Assembly (NCBI GenBank): GCA_004022145.1
Contig: RCNU01000005.1
Origin: Paecilomyces variotii
Lineage: Eukaryota
Length of the DNA stretch: 64,000 nucleotides
Strand: one strand, 5' to 3'
Shown: one piece after another, positions 12,958 through 48,800 of the stretch
Numbering within the stretch: position 1 is the stretch's first letter
Layout of the letters: each line of letters starts with the position of its first letter
Notes under the pieces: generated by a model
What the model was told of the DNA's origin: nothing
What the model saw: only the letters and a program-made list of their open reading frames with translations
Databases searched by the model: none
Program-made: the position numbers and the translations under genes

Positions 12958-15612
12958 CTAAGCAGCAGCTTCCTGCACTGGATTACTGTGAGCGCCATTA
13001 GAGGACTCAGAGACTCCCTGACCTCTGCAGAGAGGACATGAATTTCGCCCGGTTGTCAACCACTATAGTTGATGTCAGCAGCTGCTTGACTAGCCCATCA
13101 GGATCAGGTGTACAACTTACCTCGTCAATGCAATCTTTGTGATAGAGATGTTTGCAAGACGTGAGCTGTCTGAGCTCCTCTGCTGCTTCATAATCACTCA
13201 GGCAGATCAGGCATCGCTCATTCTCAGCAATCGGAATGCTCGGAGCGCCGCTACCTCCTTCCGCCTCAGCCATCAGGGTGCCGCCGTACTCAACTAGGCG
13301 GAACAATCCGCCTGCTGAGGAGACGTCTTCTTGAGAAGCAACAGGTGGCTTCGCCGGACCCAACAGAGAAGAGAGCAGAATCATGTCTTCATAGGTGGGA
13401 TTCTGTGTGGTTTTTCGTCGTTAGCCGCTGGGGGAAATCCATGGTGCAGGGTGACGGATGTGGATAAACTTACATCAGTGAAAAGGCTTGGTGTTGCAAA
13501 AGCCGGATGGTTTTCAGACAGATTCGTCCCCACTACATATATCAGCCAGCTGCGGCCGCCCGATGGCGCCGCTGCATTGTCAGGCTCAACAACACCGTTG
13601 CGTCTTGCAGCACCTGAACCTAGGTCACGGTGACGAGCAAATTCGGAATCGCTGCGACGTCGTTGACGGGCAGAATTGACCGTGCTCTCTTCTGCAGATT
13701 CTGATGTAGGCTGGGTAGCCGGACTCCCCTGACTTTGAGATGCGACATAAGGAGACATGGCAGATGCAGAAGAGGGACGTCGACTGGGGGTCGAAGTCCC
13801 TGAGGAGACAGCAGACAGGCCGGCGGGAGTCGATGGCGGTGGGTGAGGTCCAGGAGGACTTTCAGACAGGACAGTAGGCAGAGATGATGACAGGTTGGCG
13901 GAGGGTCCCACATCAGATGGCCTACGGGACGCATCAGATCTGTGACGCTGACTATCGTTATTCACAGGCACCGGGTTTGCGCTTCCCATCAAATGGCGAT
14001 GGGGTGAGAACCTGGACCGCGCATCAGCACGTCGAAGAAGATCGCGACCGCCGTTTTGATTTCGCAATAGGTCGCTCGGAGGAAGAAGTGGTAGACCAAG
14101 CAATGTATCTAAGCCCGGACCGGTGGTGTTTTGTTGTTGTTGTTGATCACCTCCGATGTTATTGCTTGAGGGAACTGACCTTACTCCCACGACCACCAGT
14201 GTCACAGTCCGTCCATCGGAACCTTCGGGAGCTGGCTCATCCATGTCCATGCGATCGGTACGCTCAGAAGGGGTTTCGCCAGCAGATCCAGAATTCCCTG
14301 ACGTTTCCGGATTGACAAAACGGAATACTCTGAGAAAGTTGACTGGAGGCAAACTCCCATCACTAGCTTGGTCTGACGCTCCCTCCGGCCCTGACGGATT
14401 TGTCTGCGCAGATGTCGCATTCTGTAAGCTCTGTATAAAGTTCTCGAGTGATCCGTCCAAACCATCATTGCCCAGAGACTGCACGTTTGGTAACACCGGG
14501 CCAGCTGTTCCAGATAGTTGAGCCGCAATAGCAGCGGCGGCCAGCTGCAGAACTCTCGACAGAGGGGTCTGTTCCTCGCGCCGTAACATCCGTGAGGAAC
14601 GGGCTCGCAGAACACCAGGGAAGCGGCGAATTCCAGTCATTCCTTGAGAAGGCCGCGACGAAGAGGTTGGAGAGAGAGGAAGTGGGTTCCTGACAGAGGG
14701 CTCAACTGAGTCGAGCTCATGGGGTGGCTCATCGAAACTCATCCGGGTATCCATAGCTCCCAGGGGAGGGAGAAGATGATCTGCGTCGTCGGTTAATGCA
14801 GAGCGTGAGGGTCGCCGCGGCGGTGTACTAGGCGGCTGGCTAGAGAGCGGGGGAGATTGTTGGCCAAATATCTGAGATATCGGAGCAGATATGGAGTTTC
14901 GAACGCGGCTTAATCGGGCGCTTCGACGCCACGACGTGCGACTGGATTCTGGTGTCTGTTCAGCAGACGAGTCAAAGTAGGCTGGGTTCGGAGGCGAGTC
15001 GGGTAGGAGAGCTGCATCGGCACGGGAAAGGGCATATGGCCCACGGATGGAGCGTCGTCTGGTGATACCTCTCGAGCTGAGGGAGCTGAAGGGAGTGAAC
15101 CGACCGGTACTGTGAGCCGTTTCTACTCTCGGGCTTGACCTCGATACAAGGCCGTTGCGATGCGCACGCCCTTCTGCAGGCGTTTCTTCTTCACTATTGA
15201 GCAGGCCTCGTATGACGGAGTTGGGAAGAAATCTCGATCCAAGCCTTGACATGGTCGACTGTCTCCTCGCAGCCAAGCGGGCGAGGGACGCGGCCCGACT
15301 CTCTCTGCGATCCTCCTCTCCCAACGGTCTCGTATCTCGCTCGTAGTTTATCTCCTGTTCCGATCCTGCATGATCAGCCGTCGACATACCGGCTGATGGC
15401 CATCCAGTCTGCTGCGGGTCCGATCCCTCTATGCTGTTCTCATTCATCGTGTCGTCCTCCCCGATGGGACGAATGTGGCGCGTTCCAGACTGTCCCGACA
15501 TATTGTTGCTCACAACGCGTTCATGTCCATTGCGTGACGACGCTGTCGGCAAAGAAAATTGCAGAGAGCTGTTTCGACGGGATTCTCGTTGCGTCGAAGA
15601 AGTCTGTCCCAT
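12958..15612 (-). CDS. RING-H2 finger protein (putative E3 ligase) with a long disordered N-terminus
   Basis: Exons 15612-13474, 13402-13121 and 13062-12958 give CLICLSDY...CKHLYHKDCIDEWLTTGRNSCPLC. The N-terminal MGQTSS fits a myristoylation motif. Confidence 0.9.
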
Positions 15613-17146
15613 AGCTGGTTCGTTCAGTTGACAGCACGAGAAGGATGAGTCACGAGGTCAGGCACTATTCCAGGCCATGGACTCGGAAGGCGGCAACACA
15701 GGCTGGACACACAGTCACCCTCAGAACTCCCAGGATGGCAGATACCGTCAGGCGTCTGAATAAACCTGGTGGCGATCCAGCTCACCAAACGCACCCAGCA
15801 AGGAGAGAACCAGGACGCGATTACCAATACACACGGGTTCCCCCACGTTTCGCTTCTGCCACCGGAGTCAAGCCACTAATGAAGCTGATTTGTGGCGAAT
15901 GGTGGCAGCAGATTTCCGGATGAGGTTATTAGGACGGCGGTAGGAAGTTCGCTATCAGGCAGCTGATAACTAATTAGTTACACGCGAGTGCTGCGTCAGC
16001 AGAAGGGTCGAGTCCTGGATGCTCGTCCGTTGACAGCGCTGAGAGTAGACAACGACTGAAGAAAGACCACGCGTAACTCCGCCTCAGTCGTAGCAATCTT
16101 AAAAAACGATATCAGCGGTGTCGTGGGAAGAAGGGAAGCTCGGACCTGGCGAAAGGACGTCGGAAAGATGAGAGCCAAACAGGGTTGGCGCTCCCCGGGG
16201 GAAGATGAAACTCGTCAAAGGGGATCCGCAACCCGTTCAGCCTGGGTCTTGAAAGAGAGACGGAGAGCAGCAGCCTACAGAACGGCCTCCGACGATGGCA
16301 CGCAGCAGACAAAGAAAGTGGTGGGGAAGAGGTGAGATGGAGATTCAGACGATGATGGTCAGGCAGTAAGTTACCGATCGGGGGGGATTACTTAGCCACT
16401 GCGGAGGATCTTCTGTCTGGATGGCGAGGATGGCTGCCAGCAAGCCCGACGGCGCTGTCCCACCAGAGGTCGCTAGACTCTTCCAGTCGCTAGTCAGACG
16501 GCAGCTAGCTTTGTCCCTTTGATGTTTGATTTGAACACGCTTATGGTAAAGATTATTATTAATGTTCACAGAGCAGTTCAGGATCCAATCAATAATAATA
16601 ATAATAATAGCGTCCTCTGGATGACTGCCGCCGTCAACTGGTCGAGTTTCCGCGGATCCCCTGCGGGTCATGGCGGCAGCCTCAGGCGGCGATCCTGCGG
16701 CGATTAATGGAATCTTTTTATCATCATCCATCCACCAGTCGGTCTGCTCTCTCTCTCTGTTCTACGCACTCTCTTCTGAGCCCAACTGCGTCTTATTCAA
16801 TTTGCTCTGAACCGCACAGCTTGCGGGTGCCAATCAGCAACAAGCGTCTCAATGCCGTTTGCCAGCACGGCTTGATTGCCTGTTGTCTCAGGCCCTTGTC
16901 GTTCAGGCTGTTTGTCAGGCTTTTGGATCGGTGAGTGTTGGGGATCAGAGCGGTATGAAAAGGATACCTAGTCTGTGATCGGGTGCCAATACTAAAAGGA
17001 ACTATCATAGCTTCTAATGACCGCCTATTTTGCCGATCATCGCTTATGCCGTCTTTTGCTACAGTGCACTATCAGAGTCGTCCACTACCCGGTTAGGGAA
17101 AACACTACCTGAGGCAGCTTTCTGTTGAGACACTTGGGAACTGCAC

Positions 17147-33897: not shown

Positions 33898-36665
33898 CTA
33901 GAAAACCTCGGGTTTAGTCTCCTTTGACCTCTCACCCTCTTTCTGCTGCTCCTTCGGTGCATGTTCTTCATGAGCAGTCACTTTCTCCTCGCCTCCCTTC
34001 TGCTCCTCTGTGTTCTCCTGTTCAGTGTGTCTTGACTCTTCCTTGCTTTCCTCAGGTGATTTCACTTGCTCGCCTTGTTTCACATCCTCAGGTTGCTTCT
34101 TCTCCATCTCCTCCCGAGCGGACTCCTGCTTATCTTCAGCCTTCTGAGGCGCAGTTTCCTTACTATTCTTCCTCTTTCTCTTCGTGTCGACATCTTTCCG
34201 CCCCGACTTCTCCGGCTCATGTCTCTCCTCCATATTATCCTCCGCTTCGAGCCTTCTCTGCTGAAACTCCAACACCTGCTCGCGCGTCGGGGTGACCTTC
34301 GTCTCCTCGAACCTCTCCACCATCGTGGCGGCAGAGTACTTTCTCAACCGCTTCGTTTCCTGCTCGAGCAGCTCACGATCAGATTTGGATAGTTCTGCTT
34401 CGTACTGCGGACCGAGAAGGTCATCAATCAATGCTCGAGTGCGAACAAGGGCCTTGAGCGCGAGGAATCCGACGACGGAGCCATCGCGAAAGACGCTGGA
34501 GCTGCGACCTTTACTGGAGACTTTGGAGATTTTGCTATTTTCCATAGCGGTGAGAAGTTTGGAGATGTGAGGACGGAGTTGGGATATGGCTTGGAGTTGT
34601 AGCTGGAAGCGGAGGGTGCGTGTGTTTGCGAGCATGTTCTGGGATTTCTGCTGTGATTGAGGAACGTTGAGGCCGTTGAGGGAGGAGAGTTCGAGAGGTT
34701 GAGAGGCAAGCCCGTCGACCAGTCGCACGTAGGCCTCCAGGACATTGGGGTCTGGGAGGATGAATTGCGATGCCATGAGATCCAGCATCTCGTTGGCGAT
34801 CTGGAAGACATTGGGATTCTTCCGGTCACGACGACAGGTGCTGAGTGCGATCCGGAAGGTTTTGCCCTCCACTGCGTCTGCGGGGATCATTTGGTCACGG
34901 ATGATTTCAAGTGCGAGTCTGCTCGAGCGGCCAACTCTCAGCAGACGCAGGTACTCGTGGAATGAATGAGAGTCCGGCTGGATCCGGCGTTCGTGACTTT
35001 CCTCGGTGAAACACTGCCAGTATCGCTTGGCGGGACCGATTCCTTGTGTCATGAGCCGGCAGGCTGTGAGGACGAGGGTCAAGACACTGTTATGGAGCTC
35101 GGCGTAGCTTGGGACAGGAGAGACGTTCTTCGTATTGCTAGTGGTTTCGGGGACGACAGCGTCGAAGAGCCCTTCGAAGCTTTCCTCTTCCTCTTCTTCG
35201 GCCAGATTCTCCTCCTGAGACTCGCTCAGTGGCTCCCCTTCTTCTCCCTCAAAAGGGATATCAGAGTCATCAGTTTGGAAACTCTCGGTTGCCCTGTTCC
35301 TTGCATGAGATGCGCGTTGCTTGATTTCATTGAATGCCTCCTCAGACAGCGCCGAAGCTTTGCCCTGCGGGACATCAGGCGGCTTGGGAGCGTAAATAGG
35401 AACCCCCATAGTTTGGTTCACCAGCGCCAGCACATCGTAGCAGTCACGCTCACTCGATCCTTCAACAAGCAGAGAGGCCATTGCGCTGACTAGAACCCGA
35501 TCCATTTGCAGATCTCCCCTCTTCCACTGCAGGACGATGTCAGACCAGATTTTCTTGCCTTCTCGCACCGCAGCGGCCTTTCTTTTCAGGATGTCGTCCA
35601 CTCTGCTAGGGTTTATATTAGAAACATCGCGCTGAGAGATCGCCTTAATGGCATGGAGAATGATCGTGTAGGTCCTCTGGTCAGGTGCTCCGAACCCTTC
35701 TTCAGGAAGGTTACCGGCGACTTCCCACAGAGTATCCATGTCTCCGTGGTGGGCACACACGTTCAGCATGGCGTTGCTGTGCGTGATATTGGGGCTCCTG
35801 ATAGATTTGTATATGGAGAGCGCGGTGTCGACGGGCTTGAATCCTCGGGTCTTACTCGTATGGCCCAGCCCATTGAGCATGATGGTGTAGGTTCGATCGT
35901 CAGGTTTTCGCCCTCTCTTCTTCATCTGTCGAAGATGTCAGTATATGATGCATCGCAAGCTTGAAGACAAGATAGGATATCCCCACGAACCTCATTATAG
36001 AACCTGAACGCTGCCTGTGGCGCATCCCTATCCATACAATGATGCAAAAGATGATTCCAAGCAACCTGACACCGCACCCCATCCGTCTGCGCTCTACGCA
36101 CCAACGCCACCGCCAGAGCCGGTTCTCGACCCTTCAGCAGCCGCGCAACACGATCCGCAAGCTCCTTCGGATCCTGCAACCACTTGATCTCCATATCCAC
36201 GACCTTTTTCGAAACCACGCCCGCGCTACCAATCCCATCTGCTTCGCGCTTTGTCCTAGGCGCCGTCGCCGCCTTCGCGATATCGAGAAGAATCTCCGCT
36301 TCACCATCATGATTTTGCGCGCGCGTTTCATTTCGATATCGATTATTATTCCGAACCTTGAAATCCTCCCATCCCTTTCTATCACGGATGCGATTCTGAT
36401 TTCGACTTTCTTCTTCTTCTGGCTCTAGCTCTGACGCCTCCGTCGCCATCCGTCTGATACCCAGGTTATGAATCCACGTCGCGACAGGCACAGGCTGTCT
36501 ACCAAGTTCAGGCAGTGGGTTCAACAAAAGAGACGCGACACGAGCTCGCATCAGCATACTACTGCTTCTGCTTCTGCTGCTCGTGCTCATCATGCGCATT
36601 GCTGCCATTCTGCGCTCTGCGCTAATCCCAGCGCCGCGGACGCAGGCATTGCTGCACCGGAGCAT
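33898..36665 (-). CDS. Pentatricopeptide-repeat protein, probably mitochondrial
   Basis: Exons 36665-35991 and 35925-33898 give AWNHLL...AFRFYNE|MKKRGRKPDDRTYTIMLNG. Further PPR-like units (HSNAMLNVC, PDQRTYTIIL). The Arg/Ser-rich N-terminus is presequence-like. Confidence 0.85.
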
Positions 36666-36689
36666 CTCAATGGTTTCCTGAAGCTCCGC

Positions 36690-36722
<33 letters not shown>

Positions 36723-37893
36723 CTTGTCTGGTATTGTTCCTCCACCACACGACAATCCTAACCGTAGGTTATATAGCCGGAATCGTTCGGAATAACTAAT
36801 CAAGGCAGGAAATCCGATCGTCTCTCGTTCGTTCGTCCTCCGCGAGTGGAAAAAGAAGAAAAAGGAAATCGGGACAAATTTCTGCGCAAGCAGAGAAAAT
36901 CTTCCACCACCACAATTCCTCCTCCTCAGTAAGCAAAGTGAGAATAACGAAATAATAAATTCCAGGCCCAGAAAAAGCCCAACTCGTGGGGGAAAAAAAA
37001 TAAAAAATAAAAAGAGCTCGAGATTTGCGCGGACAAGACAACGTTCTATTATTTCCGCCGCCGGAGCTTCTCGATAACTAATTTGACCGCCTAGATACAG
37101 CTTTTCTTTTACTATCGCGGAAAGTAACTCCGTTCCGGCCGGACTACTACTTACCTATTCCTTTATTGTATTGCAAAAAAATTATGAAGGTAAATTGAGT
37201 AAATTAAATAGAGTAGAATAATAAGTAAAAAAAAAAGCACTCTCGATTCCTAGAGTCTCACATAACACTTGTTATCTCGCATCTTTTACTCCTCTTGGAA
37301 TTCCAAAATCTTGCGCTTATTAAGGACCGCATCACGTGATCCATCCCCAACATCGCTATATCCGAGACATCTTCTTCACTCCACAGGTCTTCAAGTATAT
37401 CCTGTCTATATTGCGAACGGAGCAATAGTGAATCATGCGCAGACCAAGTCGATTTCACCCTGCGACAAATTCCTCGGGGGAAGAGACAAGGGAACAACGA
37501 AAAGCGCCAAGAGATTATCAAAACGACGCCGGGCAATAACTACCATATGGTCTTACTATTTAATATAGTACTGCTTTCATCAAATACAGCTATCTTGAGG
37601 AATGTTCTATATAACCCCTCTAAATTTACTCTTGTCTACAGCTGAAATGAACTCACGAGAGGATAATATTCTGCGCTAAACCACGTGATCGCGTGATAAT
37701 CATCGATGTACTAACTACTACATACTAACTACAGATATAGATGTACAGGTAGTATAGACTAGATAAAATACCAAACCTCCCGAATCTAAACCAAGTAGAT
37801 ACATAGTCTAGAAAGACAGAAACCGTCTTTCAAGGAAGTCTCTTCGCGCTAAAACCCCGCATAGATAGTTCTAAGTCTATCTACTCGTCAGGG

Positions 37894-37915
37894 AAAAAAA
37901 AAAAAAAAAAAAAAA
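37894..37915. repeat. Poly(A) tract, 22 nt
   Basis: Direct reading. Confidence 0.9.
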
Positions 37916-39370
37916 GGCGTGCGTAACCATCGTGGCTGTGCAAATATGCAAAAAGAAAAAATACAGTCCAGGGATGGCGAAAACCGGGGAGAAGGTTTCC
38001 TTGTTTTTTCCTACTCTAATTTTTTCCCCCTAGAGTAGTCCTTATTTTATTTTTTCTTACCAGAACTCTGGAACACTAAATTAGTTTTATCTCATTGTTA
38101 ACCAAACGGACGGCTAGATACATTCCTTCTAATTTTAACCTTACCTATAGCCAAGACCATTAGGGGACCGTTGTCGTCTGGTCGCGGGCTACTAAATCTT
38201 AGGGACATGACTGGATCGGACACCATCTCGGATACTGCCGCTGGTTCTGACACTACTACACCACACTTCGCCCCCTTGCTTAAGCTCGAGGCCATGGCTG
38301 GGCCGGTCCCATTCTTAAATTCTGTGGAACGGAGCGATCGGGCCCTAAGTGACGCGCTTGTGGAAAAATCAAGTTAATATCTCGCATATCGTACATGGTA
38401 TAAAGTGCTTAAGAGGAGGACCATATATCAAACCAGGCCTGAAGTGGCCACCAAACTCTGTGGGAACGAAGACCGTTGTTCTCAAAACATGTTATATAGG
38501 TATGGCAGTATTAAGTCAGTATGAGAGGAGACCATCCTAGGATACGAACATATTGTTGATTTCGGGAAGACGTGTCTTTCCGCGACATCTGAATCCTTGC
38601 ATTTCATGTGTACGCACGCAAATTTGGTAGAAAGACAACATCAATACGATGCGCCTCATCATGACATCCCCATATGTAGACCTGCATGATGACCTCCGGT
38701 CCCATTATGTGCATGGGAGGTTCCCCAAGTCAAGCCAGCAAGAGCCAAAGAAAAGCTAGAACGCGACACCTGAACTGACAAAGTGAAATCGCAAGGCCAC
38801 GTCTGGAGGAGAGAGAAAATAAGACGGGACTCGAAAGAGAAACCGCGTGCAGGGAATCCCAAGGTTAAACAGACATATTGAGCGATAAGATCAAGCGAAG
38901 ACAATGGACATAGCGCGAAGAGACATACACACACAGCGAATCATTGGAGTAGGACATTCGGGGAAAGGGAAAAGAAGGAAACACGGCAAGAAAAAAATGA
39001 CACGATGCTCAGATGATGCAATGATAAGATTGTGCCCGCCAAAGACCCCCCTCCAAAATCAGATTCACCAGCTACGTCCACAGGAAAACGTCATATAGTT
39101 TCCTTCCCTTTTTGTTTTTTGTTCCATGAGCTCTCTAAGTCCAAAACCAAAGCGAGAAGAGAGACACCCTGAATGATAAGAAAAGAAGATAGGACCTAGT
39201 AAGTGGAGAACTCTCGCTCTCGTTTGACTGGGCCAATCGAGGACTGAAGATAGTATCACGGTCGAAAGAGTTTCGGATTATAATTCGGAGTCACTGACGC
39301 GGGGAATGGTGGATCAGGAGAGGTTTGTAATTAAGGTATGCACACGGATATTAACACAGATGGATGCCAT

Positions 39371-41261
39371 CTATTGGTAGTTGCTGGATTGGTTGTCTGG
39401 GGCTAAAGGATCAGCCGTCAGCACCACAATGCGAAACGAGATCGTTCTGTATCCGAATCCATGCGATGCTAATCCGAGTCCCGAGGGAACGAGAGAAAAG
39501 TAAGGTGGTAAGATGGCAGCAGCTACTTACGTTGCTGGTACACCTGGTTGCTCTGTCCATAAGGGGAGTGAGGATAGTTGGCCGGGTAAGCCATCTGTCC
39601 GTTGCCCTGAGGGTAGACCATACCAGCGCCAGCGGCGCCGTACTGGCCAGGCACCTGACCATCGGCCGGTTGGTAGCCGATGGGAGGCAGCTGAGGGCGG
39701 ACACCACCAGGGTAGGACGGTGGCTGACCACCCTGAGATGGATCAGGAGCAGCACCGCTGTCCACCTGCTGCTGGGCCTGAGCGGCGGCGGCAGCACGCT
39801 CGCGCTCCTCAGCAGCCTTGCGCTGGTTCTCCTCTTCCTTCTTGCGGGCCTTCCATTCCTTGCGGATCTCTTTGAATTCTGTGTTGGAGAAAAAAAAGCG
39901 ATCCGAGTCAGCACTCACGTGGTCTGGGGTAAGATAAAATACAGAAACGGGAAATCTGATAGATGACGATTATAGCTGATCTCGCATGTGGTTAACCTTC
40001 GGCGCCGGCGTTGGCGCTACTGCGGTCCCGCGTGGGAGGAACGCCAGTGTTGTGTAACGCGACTAGTCCACGCACCAACTGAGACTAACCACATCGAGAC
40101 CAGCTACGGGCACCAAAACAACGCGACAGACGCGTCGAATGGTATACGATGAAGAAGAAGGAATTAAATCAGGCGCACAACTTACCTTCAGGAGTACGCT
40201 TAGATCCGTGAGACTGCATGGTGACGTGCGCATTGAGGTGGTTCAATGTTCCGTATGCCTTCTCACAGCCATTCCATCCGCACTTGTACATACGCTCAAT
40301 CTCCTCGTAACGGCGACGCGGTCGCTTGTGCTGCTGGGCACCGGGGATCGGCACGAAAGAGTAGACCTACAGTAAAAGAATCGGATCAGCTTCCATGACT
40401 TGGTGAACAAATGGTGGGCCCATTTGACTGCGCGTGTTCGAATCAAGAGCTCTCCGTGATAAAGGAGCATCCCATGATGAGAGAAGTCCCTTATCGACCG
40501 GGGTAGCTGCTTCGATTCTTTCTTTTTTTTTTGCCTTTTAACGAGCGACAGGCGCCGTTCCTTAACCTTTATATATGTGTTTTGAATCGTAACACACGTA
40601 CCTGGCCAGGACGCGGCCCCGCGGTCACAGCAGGGGAGGCGGAACCAACCGTTGTGGCAGGGGAACTATAGGGCCCCGGCAGACCATGCTGATGTTGTCC
40701 ATATCCATGCGACCAGTCTGGACGCGCATACATCTGAGGAGGCGGGGGGTGGCCCTGATACTGGGCCATGTCATGGCCCTGGGGCTGGTAGGGCGAGTAG
40801 GGAGGCGGATAGTTGGGGCTGGATGCCGCGATCGAGGGATCTATAGGAACGTCGGGGTCAGACTTGATGTTCGATTGAGAGTGATGGCCATTTTGTTGCC
40901 CATCGTGGAGGGTCATGGACGGACTTGTTGCTTGAGCCATACCTGCCGCGCCGCCGGCTTGGGTGTTAGGCGCGTGATGGTATTGAGGCTGACGGGCCAA
41001 GTAGTCCGGATAAGGCTGCGAGCGTCCTGCGGGAGGGTTCAGACCGTAGTCCGACTGCGGCGTGTTGGAGGAGGAAATGTTGGCGGATCGCACTTCAGGC
41101 TGGGGAGTGTACTGGGCGGCGGGACGGACGTCGGGTTGCGGCGTGTACTGAGCAGCAGCAGAAGCCTGGTCTGCAGCTGAGGGTTCAGAATGCGCGTCGG
41201 TCAAAAATGAATACGGTGAATGCAAACCTGACTGCGCGTAATCAGATGCAGGCCTGTCCAT
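39371..41261 (-). CDS. con7: C2H2 zinc-finger developmental transcription factor Con7 (Vta2-like)
   Basis: Exons 41261-40602, 40366-40186, 39878-39531 and about 39396-39371 give VYSFVPIPGAQQHKRPRRRYEEIERMYKCGWNGCEKAYGTLNHLNAHVTMQSHGSKRTPEEFKEIRKEWKARK, the Con7 signature. Confidence 0.92.
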
Positions 41262-44200
41262 ATAATGATCGGTCGCGATGGCGCGCGCGGTTTAGCGTTC
41301 CCAAGAATTCCTCCGAACAATTACCCTTCGAGAAACCTGTTGAGACGCGTGACGGACGATGAGCTTGGATTCCCCTCAGTAGAAAAGAAGCGGTATTCTC
41401 GAGATCAAGCCGACCAACGTTGGAATCGCCTGCGACTGCAACAGTTGACTCCAACGAGGTGTTCCTGCGGACGAATCGCGCTTGTGGCAACGCCTTTCTT
41501 TCCTCCTTGATTATTTTTTCTTTTTTTCTTTTGGGACGTACTAGGAGCAATGCAACTGACAGACTAGCAGTCGATGCTTTTTTTTTTTCTTTCCTTCTTC
41601 TTGATGTCCCTCTTTTTTTTCTTTTTCTTTTGGGTGTTTGTTGGTGGACTTAGGATTGAAGAGGATCAAACTGCACCTGAGCAAGAACGAAGATGAGAAA
41701 CCAAGCTGGTTGGCGAGCTGTATGTTTCCGAAGCGGAGCTCCGCGACACAACGAGATGGTGTTGTGTTCGAGGGGAAGTTCAACGGTGCTTAATCGTTTT
41801 AGTGAGCTTTTAGGGCGGAGGATGCCTTGCAGGTGGCGGTGGACAAGCACGAGGAACCAGCGGGAAGCGACTGTCTGAGCTTTTCGGGAAGTGGGAGGGG
41901 GGAACGAAGGGTTTAGAGGCCAGGACAGGGCAAGTAAGGTGCCTGGACAAACGTTCCCAGCTCGACGGTTGTAGTGCAGAGACGATGCTGCGATCGTGGC
42001 AACGCGGTTGGTTTTGACCCTAAAATCGAGAAAAGAAGCGCGACGGGTAGTAGCGCAGAAGGGGGGGAAAGAAGACCGTGGGCAGAGGCGGCGGCCTAAA
42101 AGTCTTCGGACGGGAGCCCCAAGAGACTTTCGGCAGGAGACTTCGTTTAGGGCACCTCGTGGGCTCCGTGGGTAGAGTGGAGCCTGCGTGGAGCTCCGTA
42201 TTTTTTCGCCTGTGGTTTGGCAAGGGAGGCGATCGCAAAAAGGGAAAAAGGGAAAAGAAGAGAAGAAGCGAGTAGAGAAAGAGGATACTCTTCTTCTTCC
42301 TCTTCTTTTTATTTTTCAATTAAAAGGGCGGAGGAATTCGATAATAATCCCTCTTCTTTTTTTTTTTTTCTCTTTTGCGTTGTTCAAACTGAGAGCGGAG
42401 CACTGTCTCTTTGCGGTGACGGTGTTCGAAGTTGCGCTGTATTTTTGCGTACCAATCTGGACCCACTCTGATGAAATATCAGGACTGTTTTGAAAGCTCT
42501 CTCTCTCTCTCTTTTTTTTCTTGCTTCCTTCCCCCTCTCTCTGGTGTTCGATTCGTTGTCTTTCTAATTGAATCTGTCCAGGTGATTGATGGCTCACGTA
42601 AAAACAGGGGAGAAACCAGCCCCGGAGCTTCTCCGTGACAGGGTGTGTGGCAACAGCTGAGACCCTTTTTTCCTGATTATTTTCTTTTCCTTCCTTCCTT
42701 CTCTGGCCAGTTTTCTTTTCTGTGTGCTCTTTCTCCCCCCCAGCAGGATTCAAGATGTGAAGGGGGGTTTTGGTAGTAGCAGGAGTAGGTGTCGTGACCA
42801 GGGGTGGTTTAGTCTCCCACAGGAGATTTAGCCAAGAACGCTCTTGTCGCGATAGAGAGATAGACTCTGATAGCCTGTCCGGGACGGATAGCGTGAACGT
42901 AGAGCGTAAAAAAGAGCGTAGCGCTGGAGAGAGAGGGAGGGGTGTGTTATGGGGGGTGGAGGAGAAAGCGTAGTCGGAAACTGGAGTCGCAGTGGACTAG
43001 CGCGGATGACCAGTGGTTCGAAAAAAGCACCAGGATCGTGGACAGCCTCGTTGCGAGCAGACACAGTCGCAGGGTCGGAAAAAGAGGGTGCTGCGTCGAC
43101 TGGAAAGGGACCCGTTGGACGGCTTGAACGGTCTGAGAAAGGCTTAGGGGAAGAGAAGCAAGAGGGGAGACCCTAGGCAGGAAGAGGTCGTAGCGCAGGT
43201 CGGGGGAAGCGGTGACGGCGCGTGCAGGGTGGTCTGGGTGGAGGCGACGAGGGGGGCGCAGTGGCAACACTGGTTGGTCGAGAGGGCAAGACAGGTCGAA
43301 ACTTTCGGAGGATGGGCGGGTGGGGCTGCTGCTGGATGGGGGATGGTTGGATGGCTGCTCGATGGGTTTGCGGCGGCGGTGATTGGGGAGGAGGCAAAGA
43401 CGCACATTCACCACTGGCTGGGGAGGCAAAAGGCGAGCAAGCGCAGCATCGCATCACCGCCAGCGCCCCACGCGCCAAAGTCCAGGGTACGACCGTCACC
43501 CGGCAAACCTCCAGCCGAGTCCAGGTACTGGGTACCATACGGTCACTAGCAACTGCGGCTGACTAGCGCCCACTTAGTGGCCTTCTGCGAGCTTCGAGAT
43601 AAGTATCGTGCTCCAAACGTCGCTAACCCTTTCTACGCACGCTAGTCTTACCGTACGGATGGTGTACCGGCGCGCAAGTCAGGAACGCGTGGGTGGGGAG
43701 GCAAGTAGAAACAACAACCAGCAAGAAGAAAAAAAAGGTAAAATCTACGGCGCAGAGCGTAAAAAAAAACCACAATGCAGAAAACATGGAACACCCTACA
43801 ATCAGAAGGGGAATCTTGCAAGTCAAAAAAAAAAAAAGATATCATTCCTATCTCGCAGTTCCTGCCACGCAGCTCTCGAAACGTGAAAAGAATGCAAAAG
43901 GGTGGTCGGGGAAAGTGAGCTCAAGCGATAACGATCCGACGTCAATGCCAGACCCCGAGCTGCCTCTGCATACTCCGGAGCCCATAGGCGAACTGTGTGG
44001 TGTCCGGAGCAAGTACACCGACTTATGGTACGCCAACCCCACGAGCAAATCTGAATTATGGAGCAGGAGAAAGAACACTTTCCCTACAGGGGGAGTTGCT
44101 GCATTCTAGTTATCTATTCTGTATTATTATGTATTTATCTCTTGTACTCAACTCCTTTTCTTTTTTTTTCTTCTGAGTACCACGGTTCACGATTGTCTCG

Positions 44201-44726
44201 GAACTTGACCCCTACGGCGTGGTATGTTCACGATATACTCCTGCTCTTGCCTGTCCACATCGGAGAATCCATATACTCTAGGATAAACCCCGTAATATCG
44301 CAATGAGCGCACTAGGCAGAAAGGAATGATAGCGCCGCAACCTAGCAGTAGTACGGAGCATGGGTGGTGTTCTCCGGTACACCGTTCCAGTGCAGGGGCG
44401 ATGTCAGATGTCAGGGATGAACGAACCTCCCCGGCCACAGGTAGGGGCAGAAAGGGGGCGGGTCTCCCGTCCTGTTGGTCGGGTCGATGGGCAGGCGTGC
44501 AGCGCCGTTGCTCGGATGCCAGACGGTCACTGGATCGTTGACCGACTCGGAATGATTCATTGGCCAGGATCCCCGACCGCTCCATGACGCCAGGGCCAAT
44601 CGGGCACAGCCAGCGGAGGCCGAGCATCCGGTCAAGAGAGCCCCGGAGACGCTCTGGTATCGGTATGTATGGGAAGGATCGGATGTATCCAGCTTACCGG
44701 CACATGGTAAAACTTATGCTCCGTCC

Positions 44727-44729
<3 letters not shown>

Positions 44730-44763
<34 letters not shown>
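44730..44763. repeat. (GA)n microsatellite
   Basis: 17 units. Confidence 0.95.
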
Positions 44764-44766
<3 letters not shown>

Positions 44767-45798
44767 ATTATTAATTAATAATAATCCTCTAGATATGGCC
44801 ACAAAAACGGTCATCCTTCAAGATCACGTCGATGTAGAGTGGTATAGATAACTAAATAGATCATTCGAATTACTCTAATAAGACCAGAGTGGATCTTGCT
44901 GCAACATGAGTACATACATATTATTACTCTACAACCGGTACGAGGTATACGGGGTTCGCAATTAAAAGTCTCTTGTCGACGCTCCATGGAACTCTGCTGC
45001 GGATATGGATGCAAACCGTTGTTGCCCAGTTTGTGTACCGGGTGAACAACAGTTCAGATGGATCCTGCTGTAATGTAAAAATACATGGAGGTTTAAAACT
45101 GGGAGGTCATGTGCACAGGCGTCGATCTAAATATCTCTGTCCCAGCATCAGTAGTAGTTCTGCTGGAGTAATTTTTTATTTTATTTTTTTTGTGGCATTC
45201 CGGCTGGCAAAGTAACCGAATAACAATCATCCCAGCCTCCACGTCGCATCCTTTCTGGCACCGAGTGTTGCTCTTCTGGGACTCCTGCAGTCCGTAACTG
45301 CCCGAGGGAACTGCAGGATGGTTCGCAGTCCACGGTAACGTGCTGTGAACAGTCCACACGGTGGGAGAAAAGGAAAAGGAAAAAAAGCATCAATCATTTG
45401 GCCCAACCCACATGCCGCCGATACCGACACCCTTCTTGCAAATCCCGCAGGCTCATAGGCAAACCCATCTTCCGGATCAAGCGCCATGCATTGCGGCCAC
45501 AACGCCATCTCTGGTGTCTGCTGTGCGCTGTAAGGCACAGCACCACCGCCAGCGGGCCATCAAGGTTGACGCGCCGTACGGGATGCATTAGGGAGATCTC
45601 TCCTGACTGCTGGAGTGTTCGCGAGAAACGACACACGCTTTCCGTCCAATCGCCGGCTCAGGGTCCACTTCTCTCCACCCACCCCCCAAAGACCACTCCT
45701 CAAATGCCGCGTTTCCTCGAAGGAGTAGCAGTGTACGACCGAGGGTATCTTTGCGTATGCCCAGCTTCAAGCGGTTGCCAGTAATCTCTCGAGGCTGG

Positions 45799-45825
45799 TA
45801 GATAGATAGATAGATAGATAGATAG
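45799..45825. repeat. (TAGA)n microsatellite
   Basis: More than 6 units. Confidence 0.9.
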
Positions 45826-48800
45826 GCTTCTTTTTTCCAACAATTATTACATCACAAAGAAGTTCATCTCCTTTCTTCCGGGTAGATCTATCTATGGAGT
45901 GATCGTTGACAAAACTGTCGAGTAAGCATTGGGGGGCCAAAGAACGCATAGTGTGTGATTCGCTGTTTTCTCCGTTTTTGGACGTACAGTATTATTTATT
46001 GCACACCGGCATCGTTGCATCCTTCCCTATGCGACTCTTGAGAGATCTGATTCGAGCAGACGGATCAATCTGTACGATCATTGTTGATCCATCGCTGATA
46101 GCGGTTTACTTCTGGGTAAATAAACCCCACAGGACCATTAGGCGTCAACAGACCATCTGTACCAGCTGTAGTGTATGATCTGCTCATGGCTTGTTGGGCA
46201 TACAAATAATATCGTTCTCAGAGCAAACGATTATTATGATTATTGCTTCACAACATCAGCATACCTACAAGCACTCTCTACTCGTGATAATCAATCTTGC
46301 GGAGCGATTTCTCTCTCGGTTCTGCTCCACAAGCCCCTAAGAATATATATCCTTAACTCCGAAGAGAGCCTCAGATCAAAATACAGCACAATAATACGTG
46401 ACCTGTTAAGACTTGGGAGTAACCAAGACACATTCCACAAGCAAAATATCCGAGGCTATGAATTTCTGCAGCGTTTCTTTGGAAGCATGTACCAGAATAC
46501 CGGTTCTCCGCAGCTACGGTAACATTTTTTTCCCGCTTCACCCGTGAAAATGGGGTAATCAATTGCGAGTGGCAGTGGCCCCCCAAGGAATAATAATACT
46601 GCACCATACATACAGCATGTGGCTTGCTCAACCTCAAGACAGTAAGGGTGAAACTGTTGGCGTAGATAGCGGTATTTTTTTTCCCTATTGTTATTCCGCA
46701 ATAAATTCGAGTTTATACTTGTCGATAAAAACAAAAAAAAATGACGGTCAGGAAAAGTATCCCTAATTCCTCAAAAGGGCAAGAATAGCCGCACTATTCT
46801 TTTGTTTGGCGGCGTTTGGCAGCACAACGGCAAAGAGAGTCCATAATAATAAGGACAATAACAAGGACTGAGCGGTGGGAGATAACGTTAACAACGGCCA
46901 TTGTGATCCGCGAGGCCAATTGGTCCTTTTGTTCGGATCCGAAGAACTAGATAAACGATCTAAATAACTAAACTGCCTGTCTTTTTTTAAAAACTTTTGG
47001 GTGCTACCGCGTCTAGCGTTTGGTATCCGCTCCGCAGTCAAGTAACAATAATAATCAATCATAGATAACTAGATACTATATGGGATCTACGGAGTACAAG
47101 TACGTAGACTTAGGGACATCATATCCTAAAGGTCCTCGGACCCTTCTACATGCCAGGGAAAGCGCGCATCGCTAATTACATGTTCCATGCATGTTCTACG
47201 GTCGCTCGACGGAGAGACCGTTGACTCTTGAGCATATGTTTGTTCGTATCCGTATAGGTATTTTTGCAGTATAACGTATGTATGTATGTACCAGCACTAC
47301 TACTAACTTACTCTGTATCTATCTACGGAGTACGGAGTAAGGAGGACTCCAAGACCCGCCAAGCGGACAGATTATTTGATCCTTACCGGCCGAAAACTGC
47401 ATGTGCTCTCTGAGAGCGTGCTCCCTTTTTTCGCGCGAGTTGTTTTGGAAAGTGGATTCCGAGTTTAGATTGTCGGAAGTTGGTGCGCTCCCGAGGGCCG
47501 ATCTGGTAAAAAAGCGATTATTCTGTCAATGTTAATAAAAATAACCTAACAGAATCTCCGTAGAGTTTACGTATCATATCAGATCATTATTATGTACGTA
47601 TTATTGATTGATGATGCCACAACTTCGCCGACCTACGTGTCAGGATAACAGAAGCGGGTAATAATAATAGATAAATGGTAGAGCAACAAGTCGCAATGGA
47701 GACTTTTTTTCAATGAGCCTCCAATAAGATGCAAGCTTACTTGTAATTATTGCCGCATATTCATGCCGTGTCCCCCGGTGAAGGTTCAAAAAGATCGGTG
47801 ATTCCTTCTCATATTCCCCGCGACGAGAAGCGGTGTGAGACTGTGAGTATTATTATTATTATCTTTCTCCCGAGCCAACGAACCGTGGTACGTACAGACA
47901 TGCGAATGTGGGCTGTACCAAATTTTGAAAGATAATAAATGCCCGAAAAAAATAGAAACAGAAAATTTTCGAGCAACAACTCAGTCCGGAGCAGGTAAAA
48001 TCCGATGTGCGTCCCAAGATACAAGTGGGGTTTCTGTAGCACGTGAGCAGGTAGACGCACCAACTGCAATTAGAAGGTAAATAGTTTACCGTCCGGAGTA
48101 AAAGATAGTTACCTACAATAAGATTATTAACGAATAATAATAATAAGAGACTTAAGAGGATACAAGCTTAGCCCAAATAGAGACCCTTGCGCTCAGGCTA
48201 ATCTCGGTTCCGTTCCGAGAAGCACGGAATACTCCGTGTCGCGCGACTGCAACCGGTCGTCAAGCCGCCTCAATTTCCGACAAACCAAGGATCTCCAGAA
48301 GTATGCATCGCAGGATACAGGGATGAATAATGTGACCTTCGCCAGAGCAAACACTCTGTAAATGCTTCTGGAATGGCAGTGGTAGGTGAGAAATGTTGGC
48401 CACGCCTGTTGTTTTCTTGAGGACCAAGTGGATGCGTATTTTTCTGGTACTTACTGTATCGGAAGAATGCGACACCACTCCCAAGAATTATAGCGTTAAT
48501 AATAATACTGAGACTGAAATATGCGGTCTCTTGAGCATCCTAATGTACTGAGTATATATTTGATAGTTAGTTATAGAGCTAGCCTTGTAAGCCCCTGTGT
48601 ATTAACTAGTTCACAGTTGTTCCTTTCGGGTCAGTGATATTTCGGCGGCGCACGATAAATATACCCAAGGTAACCTGTCATACCACTATCCGTGGCAGCT
48701 TCTCTAATCCGATGCTATAGAACCTACGAAACCCCTAGGATCTAGATTCTTCGTATGCTATAGAGAATAAGTATGGGATCAGCTTTCCCCCTAGATCTAG

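Follow-up and report, generated by a model that had tools for sequence, protein, structure and literature searches.

We examined the region upstream of con7 in a 64,000-nt stretch of Paecilomyces variotii DNA (assembly GCA_004022145.1, contig RCNU01000005.1; the whole stretch is hereafter the window) and found that the con7 strand carries no ATG over the 2143 nt that precede the con7 start codon. The same absence recurs upstream of con7 orthologues from several classes of fungi, and it continues past the first start codon (AUG1) to a second, in-frame one (AUG2). We consider it likely that con7 has a long leader which is scanned by ribosomes, is kept free of AUG and feeds these two starts. Judged by sequence identity, the gene is con7, encoding a C2H2 morphogenesis regulator of the Pezizomycotina. 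In several filamentous fungi, Con7 governs the formation of spores and of infection structures as well as cell-wall programmes, and the regulation of con7 has so far been studied at the levels of transcription and splicing. That the AUG-free layout is common to many distantly related fungi points to translational control of con7, which we infer by analogy with other long fungal leaders.

An ATG-free stretch ends at the con7 start codon

Scanning the + strand for CAT, we found one at 41259 (the con7 start codon, 41261..41259) and then none until 43405, which leaves 41262-43404 without a sense ATG. This exact count agrees with a manual scan in an earlier, sequence-only reading of this DNA, as does the number of ATG on the opposite strand (21 counted, where that reading gave roughly 20; 17.5 expected from dinucleotide shuffles). 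The same reading expected about 30 sense ATG; this fits the composition of the flanking DNA, but the local dinucleotide estimate is only about 11, a figure that the depletion itself pulls down in part, since it takes away AT and TG dinucleotides. Across 5000 dinucleotide-preserving shuffles of the interval, CAT occurred 10.7 ± 2.8 times with a minimum of 1, and no shuffle reached zero. The resulting CAT gap, of 2146 nt, exceeds every other trinucleotide gap in the window (all 64 trinucleotides compared; runner-up TAA, 1523 nt; next CAT gap, 993 nt).

The stretch has sharp borders, and its downstream border is the con7 start codon exactly. On the same strand, the adjoining upstream 2143 nt hold 36 sense ATG (36.4 expected), a second upstream block of this length holds 36 (39.3 expected), and the con7 3' untranslated region (UTR) holds 32 in 1331 nt (22.8 expected). 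The sense strand of the leader is rich in C and poor in G (C 0.32, G 0.20) and has A-runs, GA repeats and A-rich tracts, and the CT-rich tracts described in the sequence-only reading are present on the - strand at about 43170, 42280 and 41900. We also inspected the 22 strain substitutions listed inside the interval, none of which creates an ATG; about 4% of possible substitutions there would do so, and with fewer than one expected this check has no power.

The leader is transcribed and joined to con7 coding exons

Assembled RNA contigs from four runs in four studies were aligned to 37500-48500. We used sets X1, X5 and X9, whose con7 junctions are all GT..AG on the - strand and which therefore represent con7-strand RNA, the strand of the contigs being inferred only from splice-site orientation. 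The X2 contig (37809-44718) has no splice anywhere and was set aside as DNA-like or from another strain, rather than taken as evidence of transcription. Record 19 of X5 runs unbroken from the 41170/41228 junction to 42272, covering 41228-42272, while record 27 of X9 is contiguous over 40929-42340 and the 41334/41675 splice of X1 is joined to a contig (41675-42340) ending at 42340. The RNA that carries the con7 coding exons includes at least 1.0 kb of the ATG-free stretch, with contigs of the spliced gene reaching 1011-1079 nt upstream of AUG1 in the three sets. Because these contigs join the leader to spliced exons, long leaders exist on mature mRNA.

Beyond a skipped A-run at 42341-42382, cover extends over 42383-43295 in X1, 42383-43274 in X5 and 42383-43060 in X9. 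The X1 and X5 contigs, from two studies, end 21 nt from each other, which weakly hints at a 5' end some 110 nt downstream of the desert's upstream border, and the most upstream ~100 nt of the ATG-free stretch may precede the transcription start. Contig depth cannot rank parts of the gene, and the falls in depth at ~42340/42383 and beyond ~43300 (X1, X5 and X9) were not used to place starts or to estimate isoform ratios; nor was missing cover upstream of 43295 used as evidence. The leader also contains an optional 340-nt intron (41676..41337), spliced in X1 and retained in X5 record 19 and X9 record 27. It spans position 41541, where the sequence-only reading had placed a possible UTR intron, although the GTACGT donor proposed there is not used.

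ATG absence recurs in orthologous leaders that cannot be aligned

Orthologous loci were collected by scanning metagenome contigs with the zinc-finger exon of con7, which left 80 loci from 312 relatives. A start Met could be assigned in 68 of these; in the other 12, the sequence starts within the gene or the search pattern missed the N-terminus. Three duplicates were dropped (L042 of L034, L058 of L079 and L067 of L063, at 98.7-100% identity), after which 14 distinct loci, the window included, had at least 1200 nt upstream of the start.

Eleven of these 14 have no ATG in positions -1200 to -1, and the remainder have one (L079), two (L068) and 15 (L063). Pooled, this amounts to 18 ATG against 128.6 expected from shuffles, with 15 of the 18 coming from one lineage, while antisense CAT in the same regions occurs as expected. 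The pooled observed/expected ratio is 0.14 for ATG and 0.76 for the next lowest trinucleotide; near-cognate codons are not depleted (CTG 1.17, TTG 1.25, ATC 1.34). Free runs bounded by ATG measure 2143 nt in the window and 2137, 1958, 1759, 1739, 1732, 1457, 1431, 1207 and 738 nt in orthologues. Others reach the contig edge and are at least 1440 nt (L061), 1255 nt (L079) and 1213 nt (L049) long, that of L079 lying upstream of the ATG of its one upstream open reading frame (uORF) and ending 116 nt before the start.

The spliced, mRNA-type contig L061 encodes a protein with 99% identity to P0088 of Epicoccum nigrum; in a Dothideomycete, then, mature mRNA carries at least 1.4 kb of ATG-free leader. 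Over all 68 loci, redundant ones included, no upstream ATG was found within up to 1200 nt in 35 of 37 mRNA-type and 26 of 31 unspliced loci. The other nearest named relatives, at 71-88% identity, were Elaphomyces, Knufia (Chaetothyriales), Venturia and Acephala (Leotiomycetes); the nearest named relatives thus fall in the Eurotiomycetes, Dothideomycetes and Leotiomycetes, and no Sordariomycete was identified among the loci.

The leaders themselves could not be aligned between lineages, and a blastn search of the window leader against all 80 loci returned three short matches only (best 56 nt, 80%, L001). By these comparisons, the conserved property is the absence of ATG, without a conserved leader sequence. 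The proposal in the sequence-only reading, that selection against upstream AUGs acts on one or more very long con7 leaders, is thus borne out by the RNA contigs and by the 11 ATG-free loci, and the depletion that it looked for in orthologous regions is present, though in leaders that cannot be aligned. An AUG-free leader of 1.2-2.1 kb, retained across classes while its sequence drifts past alignment, indicates that the leader is scanned and that con7 translation matters for fitness.

A weak first start, an ATG-free coding interval and a strong second start

The desert does not end at AUG1. In the window, the next ATG of any frame lies 321 nt downstream (40940); it is in frame and encodes the Met of the conserved MAQ motif. 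The first ~2.4 kb of con7 mRNA therefore contain one start codon only, AUG1, in a weak context, whereas the 300 nt after AUG2 contain 10 ATG. Among 42 non-redundant loci, with AUG1 taken as the Met of MD..Y.QSGL and AUG2 as the Met of MAQ, the interval from AUG1 to AUG2 holds 11 ATG against 68 expected, and nine of the 11 overlap AUG1 at +4 (ATGGATGG) in some lineages; in the 300 nt that follow AUG2 there are 253, where 179 are expected. We then permuted synonymous codons with the protein held fixed, covering 40 of the 42 loci (two were dropped because the interval was out of frame or contained a stop). Out-of-frame ATG between the two starts numbered 9 against 36.9 ± 4.1, with none of 500 permutations as low, and after AUG2 the 98 observed compare with 93.9 from permutation. 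Met is likewise rare between the starts (1 among ~3600 residues, AUG2 codons excluded), compared with 112 in 3318 residues after AUG2.

The contexts of the two starts are as consistent as the interval between them. Position -3 of AUG1 is a pyrimidine in all 40 non-redundant loci that have this position on the contig (T in 34, C in 6; T in the window), and AUG2 has a purine at -3 together with G at +4 in 42 of 42. As read from the sequence, a weak AUG1, an AUG-free interval and a strong in-frame AUG2 make up the classic leaky-scanning layout, and two N-terminal forms of Con7 are predicted from one gene. Databases hold con7 gene models starting at either Met; the P0030 model is annotated from the MAQ Met, which is an annotation only.

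Some lineages have an extra in-frame Met (AUG0) ~100-190 nt upstream of AUG1, with a purine at -3, the N-terminus MS..Y.TSP...SLSAILAS and the conserved context YGTRRYATGT. AUG0 is found in many lineages and has been lost in close relatives (L030/L026 compared with L034; L051 compared with L046), where the homologous sequence remains without the ATG.

Weighing the scanned leader against other explanations

Several observations weigh against a scanned AUG-free leader that feeds two starts. The RNA evidence consists entirely of assembled contigs, from which neither 5' ends nor strand nor relative amounts can be read, and with the break at the A-run (42340/42383) it is not proven that the distal kilobase belongs to the molecules that carry the coding sequence. 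Nor is the feature present in every lineage: L063/L067 is undepleted, with 15 ATG in 1200 nt against 14.2 expected. The ATG-free run of L068 is just 738 nt, the L079/L058 lineage (N-terminus MERGAPEY) carries a 7-codon uORF, MKTAFTR, at -116 (L079 1257-1280), and L002, an mRNA-type contig with an N-terminus related to that of L079/L058, carries 1-2 upstream ATG. The orthologous loci are interrelated, so that the pooled counts are not independent events. As for the starts, in AUG0 lineages the pyrimidine at -3 of AUG1 is part of a conserved Ser codon and is not free evidence, and an internal transcription start between AUG1 and AUG2 could also explain the AUG-free coding interval. The pyrimidine is also kept where AUG1 is the first AUG (the window, L001, L046, L058, L061 and L068). 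The two undepleted loci L063 and L067, 98.7% identical to each other, still retain the AUG-free interval between AUG1 and AUG2; in these loci transcription may start nearby, or the leader may contain a large intron.

An alternative that we regard as unlikely, without dismissing it, is that the run is an ATG desert belonging to a promoter that is broad or multiple: transcription would start at points across 2 kb, most leaders would be shorter, all would yield the same protein, and there would be no control by long scanning. ATG deserts over dispersed promoters are a described class (in passages of PMC5580651), the three CT-rich tracts noted above are typical of fungal start regions, and the RNA contigs break at 42341-42382, though this is a skipped repeat. 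However, spliced coding exons are joined to at least 1011-1079 nt of leader in the window and to at least 1440 nt in L061, and selection on the distal kilobase requires that mRNAs with distal starts be translated. This explanation overlaps with that of a scanned leader and is compatible with it.

We find it very improbable that what is transcribed upstream is a sense non-coding RNA of its own or distal read-through, regulating con7 by transcriptional interference, with Con7 made by internal entry. A low-depth - strand intron (43651..43585) and contigs at 43652-44522 and 44824-45783 do indicate transcription further upstream, and the leader has A-rich tracts of the kind tied to cap-independent initiation in yeast. 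Yet the contigs run without a break from leader to spliced coding exons, and neither a non-coding RNA nor internal entry predicts a complete, strand-specific loss of ATG over 2 kb that ends at the start codon across lineages.

Control of con7 by near-cognate translation in the leader, through the TTG frame 41550-41242 suggested in the sequence-only reading or through a non-AUG N-terminal extension, is if anything a shade less probable still. Some lineages do have an in-frame N-terminal extension from AUG0, and relics of it persist without ATG in a close relative (L034 compared with L030). In the window, however, an in-frame stop lies 10 codons upstream of AUG1, the leader has no conservation that would mark a peptide, and near-cognate codons are neither depleted nor otherwise marked, which leaves the suggested TTG frame and other near-cognate uORFs without support.

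Chance or base composition is excluded: a C-rich, G-poor tract with A-runs and GA repeats lowers the expectation to ~11 ATG, but zero was never reached in the shuffles, the other strand and both flanks are normal, and the run stops exactly at the start codon and recurs in unalignable leaders.

How a scanned, AUG-free leader could act

In the scanned-leader reading, ribosomes would load at the cap and scan the entire con7 leader. Any upstream AUG would capture them, and selection would purge such AUGs. Some of the scanning ribosomes would bypass the weak AUG1 and initiate at AUG2, giving a long and a short Con7, the latter an unrecognised form predicted to be ~107 N-terminal residues shorter. 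By analogy with other systems, the long leader probably throttles or tunes con7 translation and might hold more than one transcription start. The optional in-frame introns of 57 and 84 nt, which lie beside the two starts, would add further variants. Start-codon context acts in this way in Neurospora, a Pezizomycotina species (as described in a passage of PMC7049704). The design of con7 constructs would be affected by such a layout, in promoter length, in the use of a cDNA or a genomic copy and in the choice of ATG.

A more specific version, which we put forward tentatively and hold to be possible but doubtful, is that con7 mRNA provides an AUG-free runway of ~2.4 kb on which the only AUGs are graded in-frame starts (an optional strong AUG0, the weak AUG1 and the strong AUG2), with the ratio of long to short Con7 set by scanning stringency. 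In this version, the graded-start layout is retained across at least three classes of Pezizomycotina. If this version were true, the transcription start or the leader splice form would perhaps also set this ratio, the translational state of the cell would be coupled directly to the choice of developmental programme (conidiation, infection structures), and graded starts could help explain why the annotated CON7 cDNA failed to rescue a rice-blast mutant. In that Pyricularia oryzae mutant, the annotated cDNA under the CON7 promoter gave no rescue, while a genomic copy rescued (passage in PMC8475275).

Comparison with known systems

The closest likeness that we found is to WOR1 of Candida albicans, whose 5' UTR of 1997 nt has no AUG-initiated uORF and lowers translational efficiency and polysome loading; in Candida, long leaders are restricted to a few morphogenetic regulators, WOR1, UME6, EFG1 and CZF1 (both from passages of PMC4552353). 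Like WOR1, con7 is a fungal cell-fate or morphogenesis transcription factor gene with a leader of ~2 kb lacking AUG-initiated uORFs. It differs in belonging to another gene family and subphylum, and an effect of its leader on translation would be by analogy only. It differs also in that its freedom from AUG holds across classes despite unalignable sequence and is coupled to the weak AUG1 and strong AUG2.

ATG deserts were described as ATG-deficient regions around transcription starts, from which several starts yield one protein (Lee et al. 2005, as cited in a passage of PMC5580651). The con7 leader is likewise ATG-deficient. Those deserts belong to dispersed mammalian promoters with starts over some 50-100 nt, whereas that of con7 is 2.1 kb long and strand-specific, lies inside mature mRNA and runs 318 nt into coding sequence. 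The two starts resemble leaky scanning controlled by Kozak context, in which a leaky first AUG is followed by an in-frame AUG in a strong context and the purine at -3 is key. Known cases are mostly dual-localised enzymes with a targeting peptide between the AUGs; con7 encodes a transcription factor, the part between its AUGs is a conserved low-complexity N-terminus, and its two forms are predicted.

CON7 is extensively alternatively spliced in P. oryzae and in Cladosporium fulvum (passages of PMC8475275 and PMC11694984). The window agrees with this: three introns are optional (340, 57 and 84 nt), another has an alternative donor, and one contig has a poly(A) end within an intron. The passages concerned mention neither the leader nor start-codon choice. 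In a literature search that did not extend to subscription journals and supplements, we found nothing on the con7 leader or on con7 start-codon choice. The ingredients are already known, namely upstream-AUG depletion, long AUG-free leaders on fungal morphogenetic regulators, ATG deserts, leaky scanning and CON7 splicing. What is new is that con7 has an AUG-free leader and a weak/strong start layout, conserved across classes, and that the desert continues into coding sequence.

The con7 gene, its protein and its splice forms

The gene downstream of the leader has six exons, and its product has a single C2H2 finger. The finger exon matches Pfam Zap1_zf1 at 27.6 bits (cut-off 27.2), compared with 23.3 bits for the whole protein, and no Pfam family matched the N-terminal 220 residues or the C-terminal exon. 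The conserved flanks KRPRRRYEEIERMYKC...HLNAHV are present around this finger in the window protein. Hundreds of fungal proteins match the finger exon at 97-100% identity. Among the 120 listed, 115 do so over its full 60 residues, and some of the matching proteins are named Con7 by their sources: P0117 is a 'putative C2H2 transcription factor (Con7)', and P0081 and P0119 are 'transcription factor CON7'. One splice form of the window gene, read from AUG1 (MDRPASDY...), is identical to the 406-aa P0070, whose source label is Paecilomyces variotii, Eurotiales. These two identities support the names con7 and Eurotiales, with Con7 orthology judged by sequence identity. The Con7 subfamily is described as single-copy in most Dikarya (passage in bioRxiv 10.1101/2025.09.11.675558). 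Coordinates are collected in Table 1.

Table 1. Position of the con7 leader, start codons, exons and introns in the window.
Feature	Position	Strand	Basis or remark
ATG-free stretch, con7 5' leader	41262..43404	-	ATG counts and RNA contig cover
Four copies of GTTGCCAC in the leader, same orientation	41484..43268	-	4 of the 6 copies in the 64-kb window
Optional leader intron, 340 nt, GT..AG	41337..41676	-	X1 joint 41334/41675 (cut +2); borders read in the sequence
con7 coding region with introns	39371..41261	-	RNA contigs; stop codon 39371-39373
AUG1, first con7 start (MDRPASDY...)	41259..41261	-	weak context, U at -3 (cattatATGg)
Coding interval AUG1 to AUG2, 318 nt, no ATG in any frame	40941..41258	-	0 against 2.3 expected
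Optional in-frame intron, 57 nt, just 3' of AUG1	41171..41227	-	X1 and X5 joints
AUG2, in-frame Met108 (MAQATS...)	40938..40940	-	strong context, G at -3 and G at +4
Optional in-frame intron, 84 nt, just 3' of AUG2	40841..40924	-	X1 and X5 joints
Intron upstream of the zinc-finger exon, 283 nt	40367..40649	-	X1
Alternative-donor form of this intron, 235 nt, donor 48 nt downstream	40367..40601	-	X5
C2H2 zinc-finger exon (KRPRRRYEEIERMYKCGWNGCEKAYGTLNHLNAHV)	40186..40366	-	Pfam Zap1_zf1 match
Further con7 introns	39879..40185 and 39403..39530	-	RNA contigs

Both forms of the 57-nt intron also occur in mRNA-like contigs of other lineages. The 307-nt intron after the finger exon is retained in a low-depth X5 contig, and an X9 contig ends within it at 39920, followed by 23 non-templated T (+ strand), which suggests an intronic poly(A) site yielding a truncated con7 mRNA. 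On the 3' side, X1, X5 and X9 contigs run ~1.33 kb past the stop codon (38040-39370, -) with no other open reading frame (ORF); con7 mRNA thus appears to have a long 3' UTR too, in which ATG density is normal (32).

Motif and structure in the leader

The four leader copies of GTTGCCAC lie at 41484-41491, 41996-42003, 42647-42654 and 43261-43268 (read on the + strand as GTGGCAAC), with a spacing of 512-651 nt; the count of six in the whole window includes both orientations. None of the orthologous leaders examined contains the motif, which could be a lineage-specific candidate binding site at the DNA or RNA level.

Leader structure, which the sequence-only reading had offered as one route to translational control, does not exceed that of shuffled sequence. 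In 120-nt windows with twenty shuffles each, the mean z of the fold was -0.37 on the sense and -0.25 on the antisense strand, and an Rfam search of the leader yielded 8 matches (E up to 1), none of which came near its gathering score. At ~42245-42312 (-) there is a hairpin in which a purine-rich arm pairs with the CT-rich tract (176-nt fold, -41.5 kcal/mol; z -2.4, with 2 of 200 shuffles as good), and weak Rfam matches of hairpin type gather here on both strands.

Upstream RNA and other ATG-poor tracts in the window

The - strand intron upstream of the leader is 67 nt long and GT..AG (X1, depth 7), and the contigs around it are of low depth. An X9 contig ends at 44219 with 25 non-templated A, which suggests a polyadenylated + strand RNA. 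The RNA at 43585-45783 could reflect rare distal starts and/or a divergent transcript.

The second-longest ATG-free run of the - strand, at 15679-16668 (the 993-nt gap), lies upstream of an ORF at 13381..15612 that encodes 743 aa (MGQTSSTQ...) and whose start is preceded by just one ATG, at a distance of 66 nt; this is possibly another long AUG-poor leader. At 36663-37261 (CAT gap 598, ATG gap 514) both strands are depleted, unlike the con7 leader, and this is probably a compositional tract.

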